This document shows, in pieces, positions 180-28,938 of a stretch of DNA of 31,491 nt. This DNA is from Promethearchaeota archaeon. Lineage in GTDB: Archaea > Asgardarchaeota > Lokiarchaeia > Sigyniarchaeales > SOKP01. Both the position numbers and the translations under genes were made by a program. Numbering within the stretch: position 1 is the first letter of the stretch; every line of letters begins with the position of its first letter. The stretch lies in contig SDNY01000035.1 in NCBI GenBank assembly GCA_004524535.1, positions 1-31,491 on the forward strand, read 5' to 3'. The notes beneath the pieces are model-generated. The model saw only the letters and a list, made by a program, of their open reading frames with translations. It was not told the DNA's origin and made no database searches.

Positions 180-1721
180 ATGCGAAAAGATTTAGAATAT
201 AACGATGCCTTAATAGAACTATGGGTTGATGCTTGCAAAAAATTTGTAGATATTAAAGAAGAAAAATATTTACTCCTAAGTATGGAAAAGTTAAACAATC
301 ATTTGAGAATCCCTCAAAGTCCTGTACAAATATATCATTATTTTTATACATATAATTATTTATGGCAATTTAAAAGCAGATTTTTCACTTTAGAAGATGA
401 TGATTTTTGGAAAATGTTGTTTTATCGTGCACTTTATGAAGAAAAGGATTTTAACCTTACACAAAAAATAATTCCGTTTTTAGAAAATGATATTAAATCA
501 AAAATAACTGACTTAGATTTATTATATAATAAGGCTGAGTCAATTAAAACCAAAATATATTCCTTTGAAGAAGATTCGAATAATTCGTTATCAATTAGTC
601 CAGATTTTATTTTAAATCAAGCAATAATAAGGATAAATTCAGATGGTCTTATCTCTTATCGTATGATATCAGAGAATTATATTATAAATGAGGGAATTAT
701 CTCAAATGAGTTTTGGAACGATACTAAGATGATGGAAATATATAATGATCTTTTTTCAGGACCAGGAGATAAGAAATTTAAATTTAATTTAACGGAATTT
801 GGAAAGTTATTATATATATTTTTACCTAAATTAATAAGAGATGTTTTCAAGCAATTAAAAACAAAAGAGAGGAATTTTACCCCATATATTTATTTTATTT
901 TAAATGATATGACAATTCCATTTGGTTTAGTTTATGACGATAATTTTTTCATGTTAAAATTTTCGAGTGGCTATAAAATTGGTGAACCTCCTCTCGTTGG
1001 AGTCGCTTTTGGACAAGTTGCTCAAGAGGAATCCATAACTAAAACAACATTAAATAAATTTAATGTTTTAATAATTGAAGCTGCAAATGCGAAAAGTCCT
1101 TTAAAATGGAATGAAGAACATAAAAATAAAACACTCATTTTTCCCTTCCCTGATGCTTTTGAAGAATTAAATCATATTACACAATTTTTTAATACCTGTG
1201 AAAACGTAAATCAAATCAGCATCTTATCCGGGGTTAATTCTACTCGTGAAAAGATATTGTTAAATCTTTCACAAAGAGCTTCAAAAATAATTTATTTTGT
1301 AGGAAATATATTTACGAGTAGAATGAGTCCTAAAGATAGTTATTTTCTTACGAACGATAATAACTTAATAACTTTTCAAGAAATCAAATACGCTTTAGAA
1401 AATAATGAATCTAATTCAAAACCATTGTTATTTTTTGATGCCCAATTTTTTAACGTTGATGGGAAAAGATTGAAAAATACTTTAAAAATATTTGGAGAAA
1501 TCGTTAGCCAATTCAACTATAATAAGATTTCAGGAATAATTTATCAAGCTCATTCACTTTTCAATGAAGATACTCGAAAGATCAAGGAAACCTTTTATTT
1601 AAACTTATTTAAGAATGATAGTCAAGGAGTAGCACTTCTAAAAGCCCGACAACAATATAAAAGTAGTATCGCAATTAGTTCAAGTTATATTCTCTTTGGA
1701 AAACCATGGCATAAACTTTAG
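180..1721 (+). CDS. CHAT (caspase-like) domain protein, probably catalytically inactive
   Basis: C-terminal half follows CHAT motif order (IPFGLVYD, AFEELNHI, STREKIL, IIYFVGN, LLFFDAQ, GVALLKARQ, YILFGKP), but the usual H-F-x-G-H-G and L-x-A-C catalytic positions read YFVGN and FDAQ. Confidence 0.6.
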   Translation: MRKDLEYNDALIELWVDACKKFVDIKEEKYLLLSMEKLNNHLRIPQSPVQIYHYFYTYNYLWQFKSRFFTLEDDDFWKMLFYRALYEEKDFNLTQKIIPFLENDIKSKITDLDLLYNKAESIKTKIYSFEEDSNNSLSISPDFILNQAIIRINSDGLISYRMISENYIINEGIISNEFWNDTKMMEIYNDLFSGPGDKKFKFNLTEFGKLLYIFLPKLIRDVFKQLKTKERNFTPYIYFILNDMTIPFGLVYDDNFFMLKFSSGYKIGEPPLVGVAFGQVAQEESITKTTLNKFNVLIIEAANAKSPLKWNEEHKNKTLIFPFPDAFEELNHITQFFNTCENVNQISILSGVNSTREKILLNLSQRASKIIYFVGNIFTSRMSPKDSYFLTNDNNLITFQEIKYALENNESNSKPLLFFDAQFFNVDGKRLKNTLKIFGEIVSQFNYNKISGIIYQAHSLFNEDTRKIKETFYLNLFKNDSQGVALLKARQQYKSSIAISSSYILFGKPWHKL

Positions 1722-2523: not shown

Positions 2524-4719
2524 ATGGTTAAAAATAAAGGTTTAATAAACCGGGAAGAAATCACACGATTATTCGGTTTAAGATCGCACTTTTTTGCTGA
2601 GATAATGCGATATCTTGAGAAGGAAGCTATTTTAAAAAAAGAAAAATTTGATGAAAAATTAAGAATGTTAAGAGGTAATATTTTTAAAGACTCGTCAGAA
2701 TTAAATTCAAATCTCTTTCTTAGGTATACATACTTTGCCTTATTATTGAAAGCACTTCTTATAATTAAGTTAAGCAACATTCAAAATTTAGATTTTGAAG
2801 AATGCTATGAAGATAATATCTCAAATAATTTAGAAGCATTGCATATATTTGAATTTGATTATTTCTTTTGGACGGATTTTAAAAAAAAAGCATTTGAACA
2901 AATTTATAATGCATTAGAATTTACAAAATTTGCTCAACAAGATTTATTCATTGATATCTATCAACAGATCTTCTTTTCCGTCACAAGACACAAGATAGGT
3001 GAATTTTACACACCATCTAATCTTGTACGATTAATAGTTGATGACTATTATGAATTAGGATCGAAGATATTAGATCCCTCATGTGGTTCAGGCAATTTCC
3101 TTATTGATATTATTCTTAAAATTATTAACTCTAAAGAAAGAAATAATTCAATAATAGATGCACTTAACAATGTTTATGGTTTTGATATTAACCCTTTAGC
3201 TGTAATGACTTCAAAAATCAATATTTTATTAATATATTTAGAATCTTTTGATGTTAGAAATGATGAGATGCCCAATCTCAATATTTTTTTACTCGATTCT
3301 TTATTTCCTGATAAATATGAGAATCAGATGTTTATCAACCTTAAGAACTTATATAATTCTTTTGATTTAATAATCGGAAATCCACCATGGTTAACATATA
3401 AAGATTTAGAGAATAAAGATTATCAAACAGAAATTCGCAACCTTGCAAGTAAACTAAAAATTAAACCCCCAAGCCAATATATAACTCATATAGAATTAGC
3501 TACTATCTTTTTTTATCAAATACCATTAAAATTTTTAAAAATAGGAGGCAAAATCTTTTTTGTCATTACTAAAAGCGTTTTAAATGGTGACCATTGTTAT
3601 GAGTTTCGATCATTTTCTTTATTTAATAAAAACTTAGAAATTTGGGATTTTCCTGATAATTATTTTTTCAATATACATCATGTTTGTTTAAAAGCGGAAT
3701 ATATTGGTGAAAATGATATCCCCCTAGAAGAGAAATATCCAATTAAAGCAAAAATATTTGATAAAGATTTAGAACTCCAAGAAGAGACTTATTATTCTAC
3801 CATAAAGTTAGAACAAAAGGGAGCAAAAATAATTATTCCAGTTAATCAACTAGAAATCCTTAGTAAAGTTTCTTATAGTAAGTATAAGGATAAGTTTTTC
3901 CAAGGTGCAACACTAGTCCCAAGAACGCTTGTTTTTTTTAAAATTGAAAAAAAAAAAAATAATCTTTTATTGATTTCTACAGATCGCGATATACTTTCGC
4001 GAGCAAAAAAAAAATGGAATTATTATTTTCAAAATAAAGAAATTGAGGTAAAATTTCATTTTAAAACGTTTTTAAATAGAGATTTAATCCCTTTTTTTTT
4101 AAAAAAGACTAGAAATGTTTTTCTGCCGGTTAATGATAATCTCGAATTCGATTCGGAATATCTTAATCAAAACCTAAAAGCAATTAGTTTTTATAAAGAA
4201 ATAAACGAATTTTATTGTAAAAACAAAAAGAAAACAAGCGATATTGATTCAATATTTTTAAATTTAAATTATTGGAATAAATTAACTAAACAGAATCAAA
4301 ATAAAAACTACTTGGTTATCTATAATGCAAGTGGCTCGAATTTAAAAGCAGCTGTTATAAATAATCGGGAACAAAGAATTATTGTAAGTTCCGAGAATTA
4401 TTATTATTCTACTGATTCTAAAGATGAAGCCTATTATTTATCCGCAATTTTAAATTCACCTATTTTATCGAAAAATATTAAACTTATTAAAAGTTCAAGG
4501 CATATACATAAAAGACCTTTTTCATTCCCAATACCTATATATAACGAATCTAATAAACATAAAGAATTGGCTAGACAGGCAATTAAATGCGAAACAATTG
4601 CTCAAGATCTTTTTATGAAAAATCCTAACATAAATACAATCAAACTTAATATAATTATCAATCATAAATTGAAAAAAATTAACAAATTAGTCGAACAAAT
4701 CGTGTTTAAAAGAAATTAA
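2524..4719 (+). CDS. N6-adenine DNA methyltransferase (Eco57I/type IIG-like MTase with C-terminal target-recognition region)
   Basis: GEFYTP, LDPSCGSGNF (SAM binding), GFDINPLAV, IIGNPPW (catalytic), YYLSAILNS-type C-terminal region. Confidence 0.85.
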   Translation: MVKNKGLINREEITRLFGLRSHFFAEIMRYLEKEAILKKEKFDEKLRMLRGNIFKDSSELNSNLFLRYTYFALLLKALLIIKLSNIQNLDFEECYEDNISNNLEALHIFEFDYFFWTDFKKKAFEQIYNALEFTKFAQQDLFIDIYQQIFFSVTRHKIGEFYTPSNLVRLIVDDYYELGSKILDPSCGSGNFLIDIILKIINSKERNNSIIDALNNVYGFDINPLAVMTSKINILLIYLESFDVRNDEMPNLNIFLLDSLFPDKYENQMFINLKNLYNSFDLIIGNPPWLTYKDLENKDYQTEIRNLASKLKIKPPSQYITHIELATIFFYQIPLKFLKIGGKIFFVITKSVLNGDHCYEFRSFSLFNKNLEIWDFPDNYFFNIHHVCLKAEYIGENDIPLEEKYPIKAKIFDKDLELQEETYYSTIKLEQKGAKIIIPVNQLEILSKVSYSKYKDKFFQGATLVPRTLVFFKIEKKKNNLLLISTDRDILSRAKKKWNYYFQNKEIEVKFHFKTFLNRDLIPFFLKKTRNVFLPVNDNLEFDSEYLNQNLKAISFYKEINEFYCKNKKKTSDIDSIFLNLNYWNKLTKQNQNKNYLVIYNASGSNLKAAVINNREQRIIVSSENYYYSTDSKDEAYYLSAILNSPILSKNIKLIKSSRHIHKRPFSFPIPIYNESNKHKELARQAIKCETIAQDLFMKNPNINTIKLNIIINHKLKKINKLVEQIVFKRN

Positions 4720-7849: not shown

Positions 7850-10288
7850 TTAATCCTCTTCAATCTCTTTAGCGCATTTTCCAATTGCACACACACAATC
7901 ATTCTCATAAAGGTTTATAGCCTTCACACCTTTAGATTTTCTATGAGTTATTCTGATTGAGTCCACAGGTAATCTAATCACCTGCCCCTGCTCGCTCCCA
8001 ATCAACAGATCCTCCTTAGCTGTTTTTATGGCAATTACATTATCATTCCCATCTTCATTGAGAGTTATATTTTTTACTCCTTTCGCTGCTCTATTTGTTT
8101 TTCGATATTCTTTAATATAAGTTCTTTGCCCCCTTCCTTTTTCTGTGAGTGTTAAAACGATTTCATCGTCAGAAACAAGAAGTCCTTCAATAACTTCATC
8201 ACTCTCCCTTAAGTTTACCCCTTTAACACCCATTGTTGCTCTACCAAGTTCTCTTAATTCGGATTCATCAAAACGAATAGCATAACCTTTTTTAGTCGCA
8301 ATAAAAATATCTTGAAGCTCATTTAATAGTTTTTTAACGCTAACTAATTTATCATCCTCTCTTATTATTTGAGCTCTAAGTCCACTACTCCTTACTTTAG
8401 AGAAGGATTTCAGTGGTGTTTTTTTCACAATACCATTTTTAGTCACCATTATGAGCATATCACCAGTGTTAAAATTATTAATAGGAATCATTTCTGAAAT
8501 GTTTTCACCTTCTTGTAGTTGTATTAGATTCACTATTGGTTTTCCTTTTGCCGTTCGCTTTTGTAAAGGAATTTCAAAAGCTTTTAACGAATAAACTCTC
8601 CCTTTTGAAGTGAAGAATAAAATTGTATCATGGGTAGAACATACAAATAAATCGTTTATAAAATCTTCTTCATTTACGGTTATCCCTTTTTTTCCACGAC
8701 CTCCTCTTTTTTGAGTACGATACTCTGCTAATGAGACTCTCTTTATATAATGATTCTTAGTAATGATAACAATAGTGGGCTCTTTTTTAATCAGATCTTT
8801 CTTTTCTATTTGTTCAATTATTTCCTGCTCAGTTATCTGCGTTCGGCGCTCATCACCATATTTTTTGCTCAATTCAGTTAATTCATCTTTTATTATATTT
8901 AAGCGTATTTGTTTACTTTCTAATATCTTCTGGAGTTCTTCTACTGTTTTAATTAAATCTTCTTGTTCCTCTTCAAATTTTTTTCGCTCTAAATTAGTTA
9001 ATTTAGAAAGAGTCATATTTAAAATTGCTTTAACTTGAATATCACTAAATTCAAACTCTTTTTTTAACTCAATTTTTGCCTGTTCAGTATCTTTAGCATT
9101 TCTAATAATATTTATGACTTTATCTATATTGCTTAATGCGATTAAAAGACCATCAACTATATGCAATCTATTCTGTGCTTTTTTTAGGTCAAAATCTGTC
9201 CTTTTATAAATAATATTGAGGCGATGGTTAATATATTCCTCTATTAATTCTTTTAAATTAAGAATTTTTGGTTGTTTACCTTCATTTATTAAAACTAAGT
9301 TTATAATATTAAAATTAGTTAGTAATCTAGTGTGTTTGAACAATACATTCTTAATAATAATTGGTTGGGCATTTTTTCTTAATTCTAATACAATTCGCAT
9401 TCCTTTTCTGTCTGATTCATCTCTTAAATCTCGGATATCTTTTAAAAGGCCATCTCTTATAAGTTTCGCAATCGATTCAATTAATGATTTCTTATTAACT
9501 AAATACGGAATTTCTGTAATAACTAAATTTTTGTTATTTTCTTTAATTTCTTCTTCAATTTTCCCCCTAACAGGAATGTTTCCTTGACCCGTTGCATATG
9601 CATTATAAATTCCTGCAGTATTAGTAATAATTCCTCCAGTTGGAAAATCAGGACCTTTAATAATCTCCGCCAACTCTTCTATAGAAATGTCCGGATTATC
9701 GATAGTAGAAATGATTCCTTGACATACTTCCATAAGATTATGAGGAGCCATAGAAGTAGCCATCCCCACTGCAATTCCTTTGGTTCCATTTAATAAAATA
9801 TTTGGTAATTTAGCAGGTAAGTTCCTTGGCTCAGTTCGACTATCATCGAAATTTGGTTGAAATTCAACTGTCTCTTTTTGAAGATCCTCAATCAATTCAT
9901 TCGCTATTTGAGAAAGGCGAGCTTCAGTATATCGATAAGCTGCGGGAGGATCTCCATCGATTGAACCAAAATTTCCCTGTGGATCGATCAAAGGATATCT
10001 CAATGAGAAATCTTGTGCCATTCGAACAAGAGAATTATATACCGCAACATCACCATGAGGATGGTAATTGCCTAATGTTTCACCTACAATTTTTGCACAT
10101 TTAACATGCGAGCTGTTATAATACCAGTTGTTATTTGCCATGGCATAAATTATACGCCGGTGAACGGGTTTTAATCCATCCCGAACATCAGGAATTGCCC
10201 TTTCGATAACTACTGCCATTGCATAATCAATATAACTAGTTTTCATCTCGTCCTTTAATAGGACTTCATTTATTTTTTCGACACTCAC
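7850..10288 (-). CDS. gyrA: DNA gyrase subunit A
   Basis: RAIPDVRDGLKPVHRRI, YHPHGD, AAYRYTEARL (catalytic Tyr), GyrA-box QKRGGRG, C-terminal beta-pinwheel repeats; GTG start. Confidence 0.97.
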   Translation of the reverse strand: MSVEKINEVLLKDEMKTSYIDYAMAVVIERAIPDVRDGLKPVHRRIIYAMANNNWYYNSSHVKCAKIVGETLGNYHPHGDVAVYNSLVRMAQDFSLRYPLIDPQGNFGSIDGDPPAAYRYTEARLSQIANELIEDLQKETVEFQPNFDDSRTEPRNLPAKLPNILLNGTKGIAVGMATSMAPHNLMEVCQGIISTIDNPDISIEELAEIIKGPDFPTGGIITNTAGIYNAYATGQGNIPVRGKIEEEIKENNKNLVITEIPYLVNKKSLIESIAKLIRDGLLKDIRDLRDESDRKGMRIVLELRKNAQPIIIKNVLFKHTRLLTNFNIINLVLINEGKQPKILNLKELIEEYINHRLNIIYKRTDFDLKKAQNRLHIVDGLLIALSNIDKVINIIRNAKDTEQAKIELKKEFEFSDIQVKAILNMTLSKLTNLERKKFEEEQEDLIKTVEELQKILESKQIRLNIIKDELTELSKKYGDERRTQITEQEIIEQIEKKDLIKKEPTIVIITKNHYIKRVSLAEYRTQKRGGRGKKGITVNEEDFINDLFVCSTHDTILFFTSKGRVYSLKAFEIPLQKRTAKGKPIVNLIQLQEGENISEMIPINNFNTGDMLIMVTKNGIVKKTPLKSFSKVRSSGLRAQIIREDDKLVSVKKLLNELQDIFIATKKGYAIRFDESELRELGRATMGVKGVNLRESDEVIEGLLVSDDEIVLTLTEKGRGQRTYIKEYRKTNRAAKGVKNITLNEDGNDNVIAIKTAKEDLLIGSEQGQVIRLPVDSIRITHRKSKGVKAINLYENDCVCAIGKCAKEIEED

Positions 10289-10380: not shown

Positions 10381-12387
10381 TCATAAACTTTTTGTTTCAC
10401 TATAGTGCTCAACGATAAACTTTTTTCTCGGTGTGACATCTTTGCCCATTAATTTTGAGAAAAGAATATCGTTATCTAAATAATTTTCGTATATAATCTT
10501 TTTAAGCGTACGGGTTTCCCGATTCATTGTTGTGTTGTAGAGTTCTTCAGGATTCATCTCTCCAAGACCCTTAAACCGTTTTATTTTAATTTTGTTAGTA
10601 TTTTCTATGTTATACTTTTTTATTAGGGTTTTTATTATTTCTTGTCTTTCAATTTCACTATGGCAGTAATGTATTGATTTTTTATATTTTGTTTGGTATA
10701 ATGGAGGATTTCCTATATATAAATGGCCTTTATCAATAAGAGGGCGCATGTATCTAAAAAAAAAAGTGAGCAATAAAGTCTGAATATGAAATCCGTCAAT
10801 GTCTGAATCACAGAGTATGATTACACGATGGTATCTCAAATTTTCAAGGCTGAATTCCTCATTGCTTACACCTTGAACGCCAACACCTAATGCTCTAATT
10901 ATCGCTTGAATCTCGTTATTTTGTAAGATTTTATCCAATCTTGCTTTTTCAACATTTAGAATTTTGCCCCTAAGTGGCAAAATAGCTTGATAAGTTCTAT
11001 CTCTTCCTTGTTTTGCGGAACCCCCCGCAGAATCCCCCTCAACAATAAAGACTTCGCATTCTTCGGGTTCATTGGAAGAACAATCAGCCAGTTTCCCCGG
11101 CATTCTCGCATTGTCCAATGCAGACTTTCTCCGTATTAATAATTTTGCATTTTGTGCTGCTTCTCGAGCATTTTTAGCACTTATTGTTTTCATGATAATT
11201 TTTTTCGCAGTTTGAGGATTTTCTTCAAGGTATTGTGCTAAATTTTCTGTAATTGCTTGACTAACAATTTGCCTTATCTCTGGATTTCCAAGTTTAATTT
11301 TTGTTTGGCTTTCAAACTGAGGATCTGGGAGTTTAACAGATACTATTGCCGATAATCCTTCCCTGGTATCGCTTCCACTTAAAACATGGTCTTTATATTT
11401 CTTTTCCATATTTTTTTCGATATAAGAGTTCATTGTCCTTGTAAGTGCTGATTTAAACCCGGTAAGATGCGTGCCACCTTCCAAGGTATTTATGGTATTA
11501 GCGTATGTAAGAATTGTAGTCTGATAACCTTGGTTATATTGCATTGCTATATCAACGTATACTTTTGAACCATTTGAATCATAAGAATCGCTAATAGAAA
11601 TAATATCATTATGGAGTGGTTGTTTATCCTTATTTAAATACCCAATAAATTCATTAATACCCCCCTCATAATAAAACTCTTCTTCATCTTCATCAATTTT
11701 ATCTTTTACTTCAAACTTTGCTTGAGGTGTGAGAAAAGCTAGTTCTCTTATGCGAGCGACAATTGTATGATAGTTAAATATTCTTTCTTCTGGATTAAAA
11801 TCAAAAATCTCCTTATCAGGATAAAAAGATATTTTTGTTCCAGTATCTTTACTATTTGATTTTGTAATTTTAGGATCGCTTTTCTTTATACCTCTAGAGA
11901 ATTCCTGTTCATAATGAGTATCATCTCGATCTATCTCAACTTTTAACCATTCAGTTAATGCATTAACAACTGAAAGACCTACACCATGTAAACCCCCAGA
12001 TATTTTATAACTTTTATTATCGAACTTACCACCTGAATGTAAATATTCCATAATAACTTCTACAGCTGGTTTACCATATTCTGGATGATTATCAATAGGA
12101 ATTCCTCTTCCATTATCAGAAATTTTAACGGAATTATCTGTATTAAATGTAACTCTTATATGATCAGCAAAACCCGCTAAAGCTTCATCGACTGAGTTGT
12201 CTAACACTTCAAAAACAAGATGATGAAGCCCCTTCTTACCAGTATCGCCGATATACATAGCGGGGCGTCTTCTTTAGCGACTATCATGAGATATGATTTA
12301 GTTTACGCCTTCTAGCCCCTTTAATACCTGTATATCGCCTGCGTCATAATCCTGTTCTTCTGAATCAAGGTTCTTTTTCACAGGCAT
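10381..12387 (-). CDS. gyrB: DNA gyrase subunit B in two exons: complement(join(10381..12273,12304..12387)), 658 aa
   Basis: EVLDNSVDE, DNGRGIP, GGLHGVG, EGDSAGGSA, PLRGKILNV, DSDIDG, RFKGLGEM. The ORF track starts at MYIG, but the conserved N-terminus MPVKKNLDSEEQDYDAGDIQVLKGLEGV lies upstream in frame, separated from RRRPAMYIG by a 30-nt insert. Confidence 0.95.
12274..12303 (-). other. Putative BHB mRNA intron of gyrB (30 nt)
   Basis: Sense strand AACTAAATCATATCTCATGATAGTCGCTAA, two in-frame TAA. Central helix GGCG/CGCU, bulges UA^A and AA^A, intron stem ACU-AA-AUCAU/AUGAU-AGU, distal exon helix GGGGC/GCCCC. Confidence 0.88.
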
Positions 12388-27387: not shown

Positions 27388-28938
27388 ATGAAAAGAAAAG
27401 ATCTAACAGATATGAGTGCTCTCCTGGAGCATAACATAGCGAAACTTTCAAAAATCATTGAGATGCGGGATTTAGCTAGATCAATAATGAAAGACTTACC
27501 AGAACCAATTAATCTTGAAATACCTGATAATAATACTATATTTAATTGGGTGGAAGAAATATGTGAAACACCCCATCGTCGTCCGGGTACACCAGAAGGT
27601 CATCGCGCTGAGGATTACTTAGTAAAGAAATTAAAAGAGCTAGGTCTTGAAAATGTTACTAAAGATCCAATCGATATTACAGTATGGGAAGCTAATAATT
27701 GGAAACTTATTATCGAAGAAAACGGACAAACTAAGGAATTTCCTTGCTTTTATATTCCAAGAACAGGATTTACAGGTCCGGAGGGGATAACTGGAGAGTT
27801 GGTATATGTTGGTCAAGGGTTACCTGAAGATCTTGAAAATATTGATCTGAAAGGTAAGATTGCTGTAGTGGATATAATTTTCGCTGAATTTCCTACTGGT
27901 TTGACTATGAAATTAGATCCTAAATATGGTGGAGGGGGGTATTATTTCTCCGATCCTGATGATACTATGAAAAGAAAAGTAAAGCACAGATTAATTTTCG
28001 TTCGTAAAAATTTTCCGCGTGAGGTTCCTGGAGTTCATCCGGGTCCAAATTCTGCTTATCGTAATGTTCATGAGCGAGGAGCTTTAGCTATGATTGGAAT
28101 ACTTAGAAATCATCCAGGTAACACCAATACTTACTACGGTCCTTATGATAGAGTTATCAAACCAATGCCTGCATTATGGGTTGCTAAAAACGATGGAAGA
28201 ACATTTCGTGAAATAGCACAACGGAATTGTAAAGCAACTATTATTGTAGAAGGATATCAAAAGCCTGGGGTAACTCATAATGTTTGGGGTCTCCTTCCAG
28301 GAAAATCTGATGAAATTATATTAGTATCTTCTCATCACGACGCTCCTTTTAAAGGTGCTACAGAAGACGGTACAGGTATCGCAATGGTTTTAGCACAAAT
28401 TAAAGCCTGGTCGAAATTATCTAAAGAACAGCGGCCAAGAACTCTACTTTTTGTTTGCGACGCAGGTCATTTTTGGGAAGCTTGCGGTCCTGAATATTTG
28501 GTGAAGCATCATCCTGAATTAATTAAACGTGCTTTAGCTGACGTTAACTTAGAACATGTAGCAGCAAAAGATGTTGTTGATAAAAGAGGAGAATTTGTTT
28601 TTTCAGGAAATATGGCGTTTTCCCTTGTTTATACCACAAATAATGAATATCTTATCTCGACAGTAATTAGAGCTCTTGAAAAAAATAAACCTAAATGGGT
28701 CTCAGCGGTTCCTTTTGATGTAACAGGTTCAGTTGCAGCAGGAGATGGTGGAAGATATTATCAATATGGAGGATTAAATGTTGTAAATCTCATAGCAATG
28801 CCCTATTATCTTTTAACGGCAGAAGATACTTTAGATAAAGTTGATAAAGATGAACTTAAAACATACGCTTCATTCGCAGGAGATATAATAGGTACCTTAA
28901 TGTCAATTGATAAAGAGAACCTTAAAAAAATGAATTAG
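27388..28938 (+). CDS. M28-family peptidase with PA domain
   Basis: HRRPGTPEGHRAEDY, GITGELVYVGQG...DLKGKIAVV (PA domain), NVWGLLPG, SSHHD, GATEDGTG, NLEH. Confidence 0.8.
   Translation: MKRKDLTDMSALLEHNIAKLSKIIEMRDLARSIMKDLPEPINLEIPDNNTIFNWVEEICETPHRRPGTPEGHRAEDYLVKKLKELGLENVTKDPIDITVWEANNWKLIIEENGQTKEFPCFYIPRTGFTGPEGITGELVYVGQGLPEDLENIDLKGKIAVVDIIFAEFPTGLTMKLDPKYGGGGYYFSDPDDTMKRKVKHRLIFVRKNFPREVPGVHPGPNSAYRNVHERGALAMIGILRNHPGNTNTYYGPYDRVIKPMPALWVAKNDGRTFREIAQRNCKATIIVEGYQKPGVTHNVWGLLPGKSDEIILVSSHHDAPFKGATEDGTGIAMVLAQIKAWSKLSKEQRPRTLLFVCDAGHFWEACGPEYLVKHHPELIKRALADVNLEHVAAKDVVDKRGEFVFSGNMAFSLVYTTNNEYLISTVIRALEKNKPKWVSAVPFDVTGSVAAGDGGRYYQYGGLNVVNLIAMPYYLLTAEDTLDKVDKDELKTYASFAGDIIGTLMSIDKENLKKMN

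Follow-up and report, generated by a model that had tools for sequence, protein, structure and literature searches.

The only gyrB gene in the genome of a Promethearchaeota archaeon (assembly GCA_004524535.1) is interrupted by 30 nucleotides that very probably constitute an archaeal intron of the bulge-helix-bulge (BHB) type, in its relaxed form, termed HBh' or bulge-helix-loop (BHL). The interruption was found on contig SDNY01000035.1, which was analysed over its whole length of 31,491 nucleotides (the window; contig C104 of the genome), and occupies positions 12303-12274 of the minus strand. The host genome comprises 3.66 Mb in 198 contigs with a G+C content of 30.4%, and is rated 99% complete.

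A 30-nucleotide insert splits the gyrB reading frame

The minus-strand open reading frame (ORF) starts with the ATG at 12387-12385, reads MPVKKNLDSEEQDYDAGDIQVLKGLEGV and ends with the codon GTA at 12306-12304. The following 30 nucleotides (12303-12274) translate as N-stop-IISHDSR-stop, both stops being TAA codons in frame. From 12273 onwards the frame of exon 1 is taken up again with AGA AGA CGC CCC GCT ATG, the start of RRRPAMYIGDT, and it remains open up to the stop at 10381-10383. This downstream piece, RRRPAMYIGDTGKKGLHH..., is 630 codons long. An earlier note on this DNA, made from the letters alone, had claimed that gyrB is broken between LEGV and RRRPAMYIG by 30 nucleotides with two TAA codons and that gyrA and the rest of gyrB are intact. 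Both claims hold: the break lies where the note had placed it, gyrA encodes a complete protein (Table 1), and exon 2 contains all GyrB domains, namely the Pfam domains HATPase_c, DNA_gyraseB, Toprim and DNA_gyraseB_C. The note had also proposed a search for another gyrB copy, and the genome was found to hold this one only.

Exon 2 matches solved GyrB chains with a best E value of 8.8e-185, its first residue aligning to residues 19-21 of these chains. The last 17 residues of exon 1 align to residues 4-20 of GyrB 6enh_A, a match that is weak on its own (E 1.4), and the exons meet between residues 20 and 21 of this structure. Since exon 1 ends at residue 20 of 6enh_A and exon 2 begins at residue 21, the two pieces join to a normal GyrB without gap or overlap. 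The identity as DNA gyrase subunit B is indicated by the four domains, by the N-terminal arm, with the weak match just given, and by the adjacent gyrA. In the mechanically generated ORF list GyrB appears as a protein of 625 amino acids that starts at the internal ATG at 12258 and does not contain the N-terminal arm. Searches with Rfam (at gathering thresholds) and Aragorn gave no match anywhere in the window.

The N-terminal arm of GyrB, with its Tyr and Ile residues, is required for ATP-dependent dimerisation, a role that is known from the literature and was stated in the earlier note as well. A Y5S mutation in this arm is mentioned in PMC4159350, whose reference list contains Brino et al. 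2000.

The insert is present in 21 distinct alleles

From 40 related genomes 30 gyrB loci were obtained. Five of them carry a 30-nucleotide insert between the GV and R codons, 23 are uninterrupted and two do not contain the motif; the five carriers (the host genome itself, G001, G003, G004 and G006) belong to one genus. Two public collections were scanned with a degenerate pattern consisting, at the amino-acid level, of the codons for VLKGL(E/D)(G/A)(V/I) and R(K/R)RP(A/G/S)MY with 14-44 free bases between them. This pattern is blind to the sequence and structure of the insert and to third codon positions, and it matches once in the window and in none of 100 shuffles. The scan yielded 16 metagenome contigs and nine contigs of species-representative genomes (none with a record that names a cultured strain), 23 of which are of the Promethearchaeota type and two of which are bacterial and unrelated. 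Together with the five genome loci, the 23 contigs collapse to 21 distinct alleles, and the genome records with the insert belong to Promethearchaeota or Promethearchaeia (Asgard archaea).

The insert is 30 nucleotides long in 11 alleles, 31 in four and 33 in six. In all 21 alleles the frame of exon 1 runs into a stop no later than the fourth codon of the insert, and the inserts of 31 nucleotides additionally shift the reading frame. Deletion of the insert gives back GVR(R/K)RPA in every allele, irrespective of whether 30, 31 or 33 nucleotides are removed. Absence of the insert from sequencing reads, which would have spoken against an intron, was not observed: DNA contigs of three runs span the insert without skipping it, two of them from other studies (X2, record 13, and X3, record 24) and the third in all likelihood the source run itself (X1, record 7). 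The insert is no assembly artefact.

Three candidates were rejected. The bacterial match L052 (~694-760, minus strand) stems from a GC-rich metagenome contig in which 26 nucleotides with the RKRPGMYIG codons are exactly duplicated in tandem, and the other, L062 (~2246-2305), is a 15-nucleotide in-frame insert at the same spot of gyrB in a metagenome-assembled genome of the Wenzhouxiangellaceae. The gyrB of G019, a genome of another genus in the same family (L079, G019:C95:8700-10900), has a mid-gene frameshift with about 14 codons missing and not an insert; reading through this gene encounters one TGA and one TAA, due to a deletion or an assembly problem.

Exon 1 is maintained as coding sequence

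Exon 1 is an ORF starting with ATG in 21 of 21 alleles, with a length of 21-37 codons and the ending Y(D/G)A.DIQVLKGL(E/D)GV, and as far as the contigs extend exon 2 is complete, with 629-660 codons. Over the 15 codons at the end of exon 1 the pairwise ratio of nonsynonymous to synonymous differences per site (pN/pS) is 0.066, and for the eight exon 1 codons outside the RNA helix described below it is 0.050, with pS values of 0.60-0.77 for exon 1. For comparison, these alleles have a pN/pS of 0.165 over the initial 50 codons of exon 2. Exon 1 is under strong purifying selection, and a relic or a spacer would not show such constraint. The decay of exon 1 relative to its orthologs, against which the earlier note had cautioned, is not seen, the pN/pS being 0.05-0.07 and the ORF intact in all 21 alleles.

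The insert and its flanks are predicted to form a relaxed BHB-like structure

The structural elements predicted at the insert are listed in Table 1. A cut after the second base of each of the two triplets, UA^A at the 5' and AA^A at the 3' site (the caret marks the cut), yields precisely the 30-nucleotide insert. It had been claimed beforehand that the helix GGCG/CGCU together with these two triplets sets the borders of the insert, that the helix on the exon side is displaced by an internal loop, as in a relaxed BHB motif, and that the element extends over 12262-12319. The first claim is borne out by the predicted junction, which restores GVR(R/K)RPA in 21 of 21 alleles, and for the second the minimum free energy (MFE) folds and RNAalifold agree; the coordinates cover the whole structure, including the outer helix between the exons.

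Of the 21 MFE folds of single alleles, 15 contain the 4-bp helix H and 20 the exon-exon helix. Seven of the folds, among them that of the window allele, have exactly three unpaired bases between H and the intron hairpin h', and in these seven the hairpin stacks directly on the other strand of H; in the remaining alleles h' is opened by a few bases. RNAalifold finds the same three helices when no structure is supplied.

Covariation was counted on a MAFFT alignment of the 21 alleles (alignment A1), in which the structure comprises 18 pairs and 376 cells. Standard pairs are present in 92.8% of the cells, a share that none of 500 column shuffles attained (83.0% on shuffling). Since the alleles are related, these shuffle statistics overstate independence and are not to be read as probabilities. 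When the 3' partners are slid by one to three columns, pairing drops to 30.6-46.0%. Nine of the 18 pairs have changed on both sides, in a total of 41 cells. Helix H (columns 13-16/47-50) is paired in 95.2% of its cells, with alternation of G-C and G-U at two pairs and the consensus GGCG/CGYY.

The exon-exon helix is built from codons. In columns 3-64, 6-61 and 9-58 the third positions of the exon 1 codons for Lys, Gly and Leu pair with the third positions of the exon 2 codons for Lys or Arg, Arg and Pro, and these pairs alternate between G-C, C-G, U-A and A-U; for 6-61 we found UA in eight alleles, CG in seven, GC in four, UG in one and no pair in one. Of the 7 positions of this helix, a mean of 6.43 pair in the 21 alleles with the insert, versus 4.38 in 21 uninterrupted ones, close relatives included.

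Three characteristics of a BHB motif are thus found: a central helix of 4 bp, a 5' bulge of three nucleotides between H and h', and predicted cuts that would give a functional joined product. The 3' site is located in an internal loop in which about 7 nucleotides on the 3' strand face three nucleotides (GAA), the exon-exon helix beginning 4 nucleotides further out. This places the motif in the relaxed HBh'/BHL class rather than in the strict one.

We also observed that the top of the hairpin (TCAT, five loop bases ending in TC, and ATGA; 12283-12295, columns 28-40 of A1) is nearly invariant in the 21 alleles. The lower stem of the hairpin varies freely, and the ATG inside the hairpin top is out of frame with exon 2.

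Table 1. Coordinates of gyrB, its putative intron with the predicted structural elements, and gyrA in the window (a caret marks a predicted cut)
Feature	Position	Strand	Remarks
gyrB exon 1	12304..12387	-	28 codons, ATG 12387 to GTA 12304; encodes N-terminal arm ...YDAGDIQVLKGLEGV
Intervening sequence, putative BHB/HBh'-type intron	12274..12303	-	30 nt, two in-frame TAA; match to core covariance model, E 2.7e-7
gyrB exon 2	10381..12273	-	630 codons and stop; begins RRRPAMYIG; Pfam and PDB matches
Exon-exon helix, exon 1 strand GGGGC (codons Lys-Gly-Leu)	12315..12319	-	pairs with 12262-12266
Central 4-bp helix H, 5' strand GGCG (last bases of exon 1)	12306..12309	-	pairs with 12276-12279
5' three-base bulge T-A^A	12303..12305	-	predicted cut after 12304; unpaired in single-sequence MFE fold
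Intron hairpin h'	12280..12302	-	ACT/AGT and ATCAT/ATGAT stems, 5-nt loop; columns 20-21/45-46 and 27-31/37-42 with compensatory changes
Helix H, 3' strand CGCT (near 3' end of insert)	12276..12279	-	pairs with 12306-12309
3' splice-site triplet A-A^A	12273..12275	-	predicted cut after 12274; in internal loop, no closed bulge
Exon-exon helix, exon 2 strand GCCCC (codons Arg-Pro)	12262..12266	-	pairs with 12315-12319
gyrA	7850..10288	-	812 aa, intact, directly downstream of gyrB; Pfam DNA_topoisoIV (3.1e-159) and DNA_gyraseA_C

The genome encodes candidate splicing enzymes

Two paralogues of the tRNA-intron endonuclease EndA (PF01974), each of 201 amino acids, are encoded on different contigs with scores of 107.9 and 70.7 bits, both above the cut-off, and the ligase RtcB is encoded as well (contig C101, 561 bits). 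The EndA on contig C100 is closest to chain B of 3P1Z, to which it aligns nearly without gaps, and its residues K-P-R fall on K44-P45-R46, the crenarchaeal specific loop (CSL) of that protein. 3P1Z is the (alpha-beta)2 enzyme of Aeropyrum pernix, and according to PMC3241643 the residues of the Crenarchaea-specific loop are needed to cut relaxed BHL substrates. The C100 protein is alpha-like and has the loop residues for broad specificity. The EndA on contig C84 shares 29% identity with the C100 paralogue over 121 residues and has no His at the position of the catalytic His, suggesting that it is a structural beta subunit.

Such a pair of subunits has been described for related organisms: Asgard archaea are reported to have an (alpha-beta)2 EndA with an L1 loop (PMC5829648), and two EndA paralogues are given for 44 of 60 Asgard genomes in a preprint that also describes Asgard tRNA genes as heavily interrupted (bioRxiv 10.64898/2026.10.13.758758). 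Aragorn found only 12 tRNA genes in the whole host genome, eight of them with introns (one implausible, with 2927 nucleotides), which fits the reported heavy interruption. Most tRNA genes of this genome are presumably hidden by multiple or non-canonical introns.

Proposed splicing pathway and RNA data

In the proposed pathway the GGCG at the end of exon 1 would pair with the CGCU at the 3' end of the intron, the remaining intron would form a hairpin after the bulge of three nucleotides, and a helix of 5-7 bp between exon 1 and exon 2 would close the structure, with an internal loop between this helix and H. EndA, assembled from the alpha and beta paralogues with the loop on alpha, would bind H and cut UA^A after 12304, and a second cut would follow at the symmetric position AA^A, after 12274. 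RtcB would then join the exons and probably circularise the intron. The spliced mRNA would read ...LEGV-RRRPAMYIG... and encode a full-length GyrB with its N-terminal arm. We infer splicing of gyrB from comparative evidence, and with it cleavage, ligation and the participation of EndA and RtcB as agents.

The search for sequencing runs listed 23 DNA runs and one RNA run, X24, a wetland metatranscriptome. X24 contains two contigs of gyrB exon 2, at 11458-11699 and 12032-12228, which differ from the window at 13 of 242 and at two of 197 nucleotides, respectively. The gyrB sequence of a close relative is thus present in this RNA library, possibly through carry-over of DNA. A joint between 12273 and 12304 was not found in the four runs compared, which were three DNA runs and X24, whose coverage ends before the junction.

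Several points weigh against the assignment of the insert as a BHB-type intron. The strict hBHBh' motif is not formed, the 3' site being placed within an internal loop that measures roughly 3 x 7 nucleotides, and since this site is not a closed bulge, cleavage would depend on an enzyme of broad specificity. The fourth pair of helix H is G.A in four of 21 alleles. The structure was first derived from one of the 21 alleles, the other 20 having been retrieved without reference to it, and the relatedness of the alleles tempers the shuffle comparison, as stated above. That the second EndA paralogue acts as beta subunit, and that EndA cuts the gyrB substrate at all, are predictions from alignment, and the RNA coverage in X24 stops at 12228, 45 nucleotides short of the insert.

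Alternative explanations

It is conceivable that the insert broke the gene, that GyrB now starts at the internal ATG at 12258 (MYIG) and is made without the arm, and that exon 1 persists as a mere remnant or serves as a small upstream ORF. The 625-amino-acid ORF starting there does keep all four Pfam domains, and an RNA coverage that ends before the junction, at 12228, is compatible with such a start. Nevertheless, this explanation is very unlikely in our view. The ATG and the sequence YDA.DIQVLKGL(E/D)GV of exon 1 are kept in all 21 alleles at a pN/pS of 0.05-0.07 and with synonymous sites near saturation. R(R/K)RPA, located upstream of the ATG at 12258, is kept at the protein level by way of synonymous changes in its Arg codons. 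In addition, synonymous positions covary between the two exons, for which there is no reason in a relic, and removal of the 31-nucleotide inserts still restores the frame exactly.

The insert might also be removed from the RNA by another pair of nuclease and ligase, or by a self-processing activity of a kind not yet described, instead of EndA and RtcB. That the 3' site is not a canonical bulge would be in line with this, as would the fact that the role of EndA in this case is a prediction from sequence. The 4-bp helix, the 3-nucleotide bulge and the cuts two bases into the triplets correspond to the ruler used by EndA, however, and the resulting junction is in frame in all alleles; furthermore, the genome encodes an EndA alpha subunit that appears to bear the CSL, a beta-like paralogue and RtcB. 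Self-splicing is implausible at 30-33 nucleotides, a length that is to our knowledge below that of any known self-splicing intron. We thus regard a different processing machinery, which none of the observations demands, as highly improbable.

Programmed translational bypassing, as in gene 60 of phage T4, would leave the insert in the mRNA and let the ribosome pass over it. Like gyrB, gene 60 is a topoisomerase-subunit gene with a short untranslated gap that contains stops and a hairpin, and in gyrB, too, stops come early in the insert, by its fourth codon. Bypassing of the gene 60 type uses matched take-off and landing codons and a stop directly after the take-off codon. In gyrB, by contrast, the triplet before exon 2 matches the take-off codon GTA or GTT in none of the 21 alleles, and in no allele does a stop directly follow the take-off codon. 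Bypassing would require neither the covarying exon-exon helix nor a 4-bp helix in BHB geometry, and both point to RNA processing. Bypassing is therefore even less probable than the two preceding explanations.

Read-through of the stops or an alternative genetic code fails on the 31-nucleotide inserts. The probability of an assembly or sequencing artefact or of a decaying gyrB pseudogene is close to nil even with an assembly in 198 contigs, since both are ruled out by 21 distinct alleles that come from independent assemblies, by the DNA contigs from two other studies that span the insert, and by an exon 2 that is full length wherever the contig permits in the only gyrB of a genome rated 99% complete.

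Distribution and history of the insert

A core covariance model of the intron was used to survey the family with stricter filters and 50 candidates scored per genome. Among the candidates scored it matches in nine of 134 family genomes, once per genome and always in gyrB. Carriers amount to five of nine genomes in the genus of the window (own genome included), four of 42 in a second genus and none of 83 in eleven other genera. Sister introns were looked for in the own genome with 150 of about 3598 first-look candidates scored, and gyrB was the only significant match, with no tRNA gene or other gene giving a further one; the next ones among these candidates have E values of 0.45, 5.4 and 9.5. 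The absence of another significant match indicates that the insert is not a multi-copy mobile element in this genome. The cbf5 gene of the own genome (C20:233-1183) is uninterrupted.

The match with E 0.45, on contig C114 (~27865-27900; L068 1490-1535), was rejected, since it marks no intron but a frameshift next to six consecutive G. The gene concerned, for an Fe-S protein, is split into ORFs of 97 and 258 amino acids, for which a sequencing error or a real frameshift is possible.

A quick maximum likelihood tree was calculated with IQ-TREE from 39 exon 2 proteins, leaving out L040 and L042 (fewer than 500 exon 2 residues), exact duplicates, and L016 and L022 (no motif). All 19 insert-bearing rows fall into one clade of 26 rows with a support of 93 in the Shimodaira-Hasegawa-like approximate likelihood ratio test (SH-aLRT). 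The other seven rows of this clade are uninterrupted and interspersed, and the label for absence of the insert needs at least four changes. Since the site and the hairpin are shared, the distribution is most simply explained by a single gain and several precise losses thereafter. The intron probably arose once, in one family of the Promethearchaeia, and disappeared several times. Insert-free alleles inside the clade have an exon-exon pairing of 3-6 of 7, as is to be expected when the structural constraint is gone after loss.

Elsewhere in the window, an ORF of 731 amino acids (2524-4719, plus strand) has N6_Mtase, Eco57I and MmeI-type methyltransferase domains and probably encodes a type IIG/IIL restriction-modification enzyme.

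Discussion

Introns in the pre-mRNA of cbf5 were reportedly studied by Watanabe in 2002 and by Yoshinari in 2006. For this gene, which encodes a pseudouridine synthase in Crenarchaeota, splicing of a BHB intron has been shown experimentally. Its motif is often relaxed, and a pattern of gain and loss has been described (Yokobori 2009, PMC2738675). The gyrB intron resembles the one in cbf5 in that it is small, located within coding sequence, of a relaxed motif, patchily gained and lost, and found in a lineage with a hetero-oligomeric endonuclease. It differs in the gene, gyrB, and in the phylum, Asgard archaea/Promethearchaeota, and whereas splicing has been shown for cbf5 it is deduced by comparison for gyrB. 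The gyrB intron would thus extend the mechanism class of the cbf5 intron to another gene and another phylum.

A second mRNA substrate is HVO_1309 of Haloferax volcanii, for which a BHB intron in the 5' untranslated region (UTR) was shown in vivo and in vitro (PMC7714728). As proposed for gyrB, an mRNA serves there as substrate of the tRNA-splicing endonuclease; unlike in gyrB, the intron is located in the untranslated leader and the protein is independent of exact joining. In that 2020 article, the cbf5 mRNA of Crenarchaeota is named as the only other archaeal mRNA for which a BHB intron had been reported besides the 5' UTR one, and the reference list of a 2025 paper contains the same three cbf5 publications (PMC12397907, entries 4-6). 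In the literature searched, which consisted mostly of sources other than subscription journals and supplements, we found no report of a BHB intron in gyrB or gyrase or in any Asgard mRNA, and the terms 'mRNA' and 'gyr' do not occur in the accessible text of the preprint on Asgard tRNA introns (bioRxiv 10.64898/2026.10.13.758758). gyrB would be the second known archaeal protein-coding sequence that requires BHB splicing.

In motif class, size range and type of enzyme encoded, the gyrB intron is similar to non-canonical tRNA introns (HBh', BHL) in TACK and Asgard archaea, which are cut by (alpha-beta)2 EndA enzymes bearing the CSL or L1 loop (PMC3241643, PMC5829648, bioRxiv 10.64898/2026.10.13.758758). 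In contrast to these, the host RNA of the gyrB intron is an mRNA, and its outer helix is built from codons.

In eukaryotes, the HAC1 and XBP1 mRNAs are cut by IRE1 and joined by tRNA ligase or RtcB, and the regulatory role of this reaction is proven. Like the gyrB insert, the HAC1 and XBP1 introns are short, located in the coding sequence and independent of a spliceosome, with sites defined by stem-loops, joining by a tRNA ligase (predicted in the case of gyrB) and a product that depends on it. Their nuclease, IRE1, is not the tRNA endonuclease.

It might be possible that splicing of gyrB is likewise a regulated checkpoint, at which the activity of EndA and RtcB, or the folding of the two exons onto each other before ribosomes arrive, gates gyrase and thereby supercoiling. 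We consider this unlikely. The patchy distribution and the repeated losses suggest that the intron is dispensable and argue against an essential regulatory role. Most simply, the BHB-type intron in gyrB is a tolerated passenger, the splicing of which is kept efficient by selection. If the checkpoint did exist, it would be a prokaryotic counterpart of the unconventional splicing of the HAC1/XBP1 type, and it would hint at a wider occurrence of mRNA splicing through the tRNA pathway among the archaea related to eukaryotes.

Gene callers will cut such genes short, as was the case for the GyrB of 625 amino acids. With about 63 nucleotides and 21 natural variants, the element provides a compact natural substrate for the question of how endonucleases of the CSL type read relaxed motifs outside tRNA. 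If the insert is indeed spliced as proposed, selection tunes synonymous codons of both exons to preserve an mRNA splicing structure, and in the archaea most closely related to eukaryotes protein-coding genes, here an essential topoisomerase gene, can rely on RtcB and the endonuclease of tRNA splicing.

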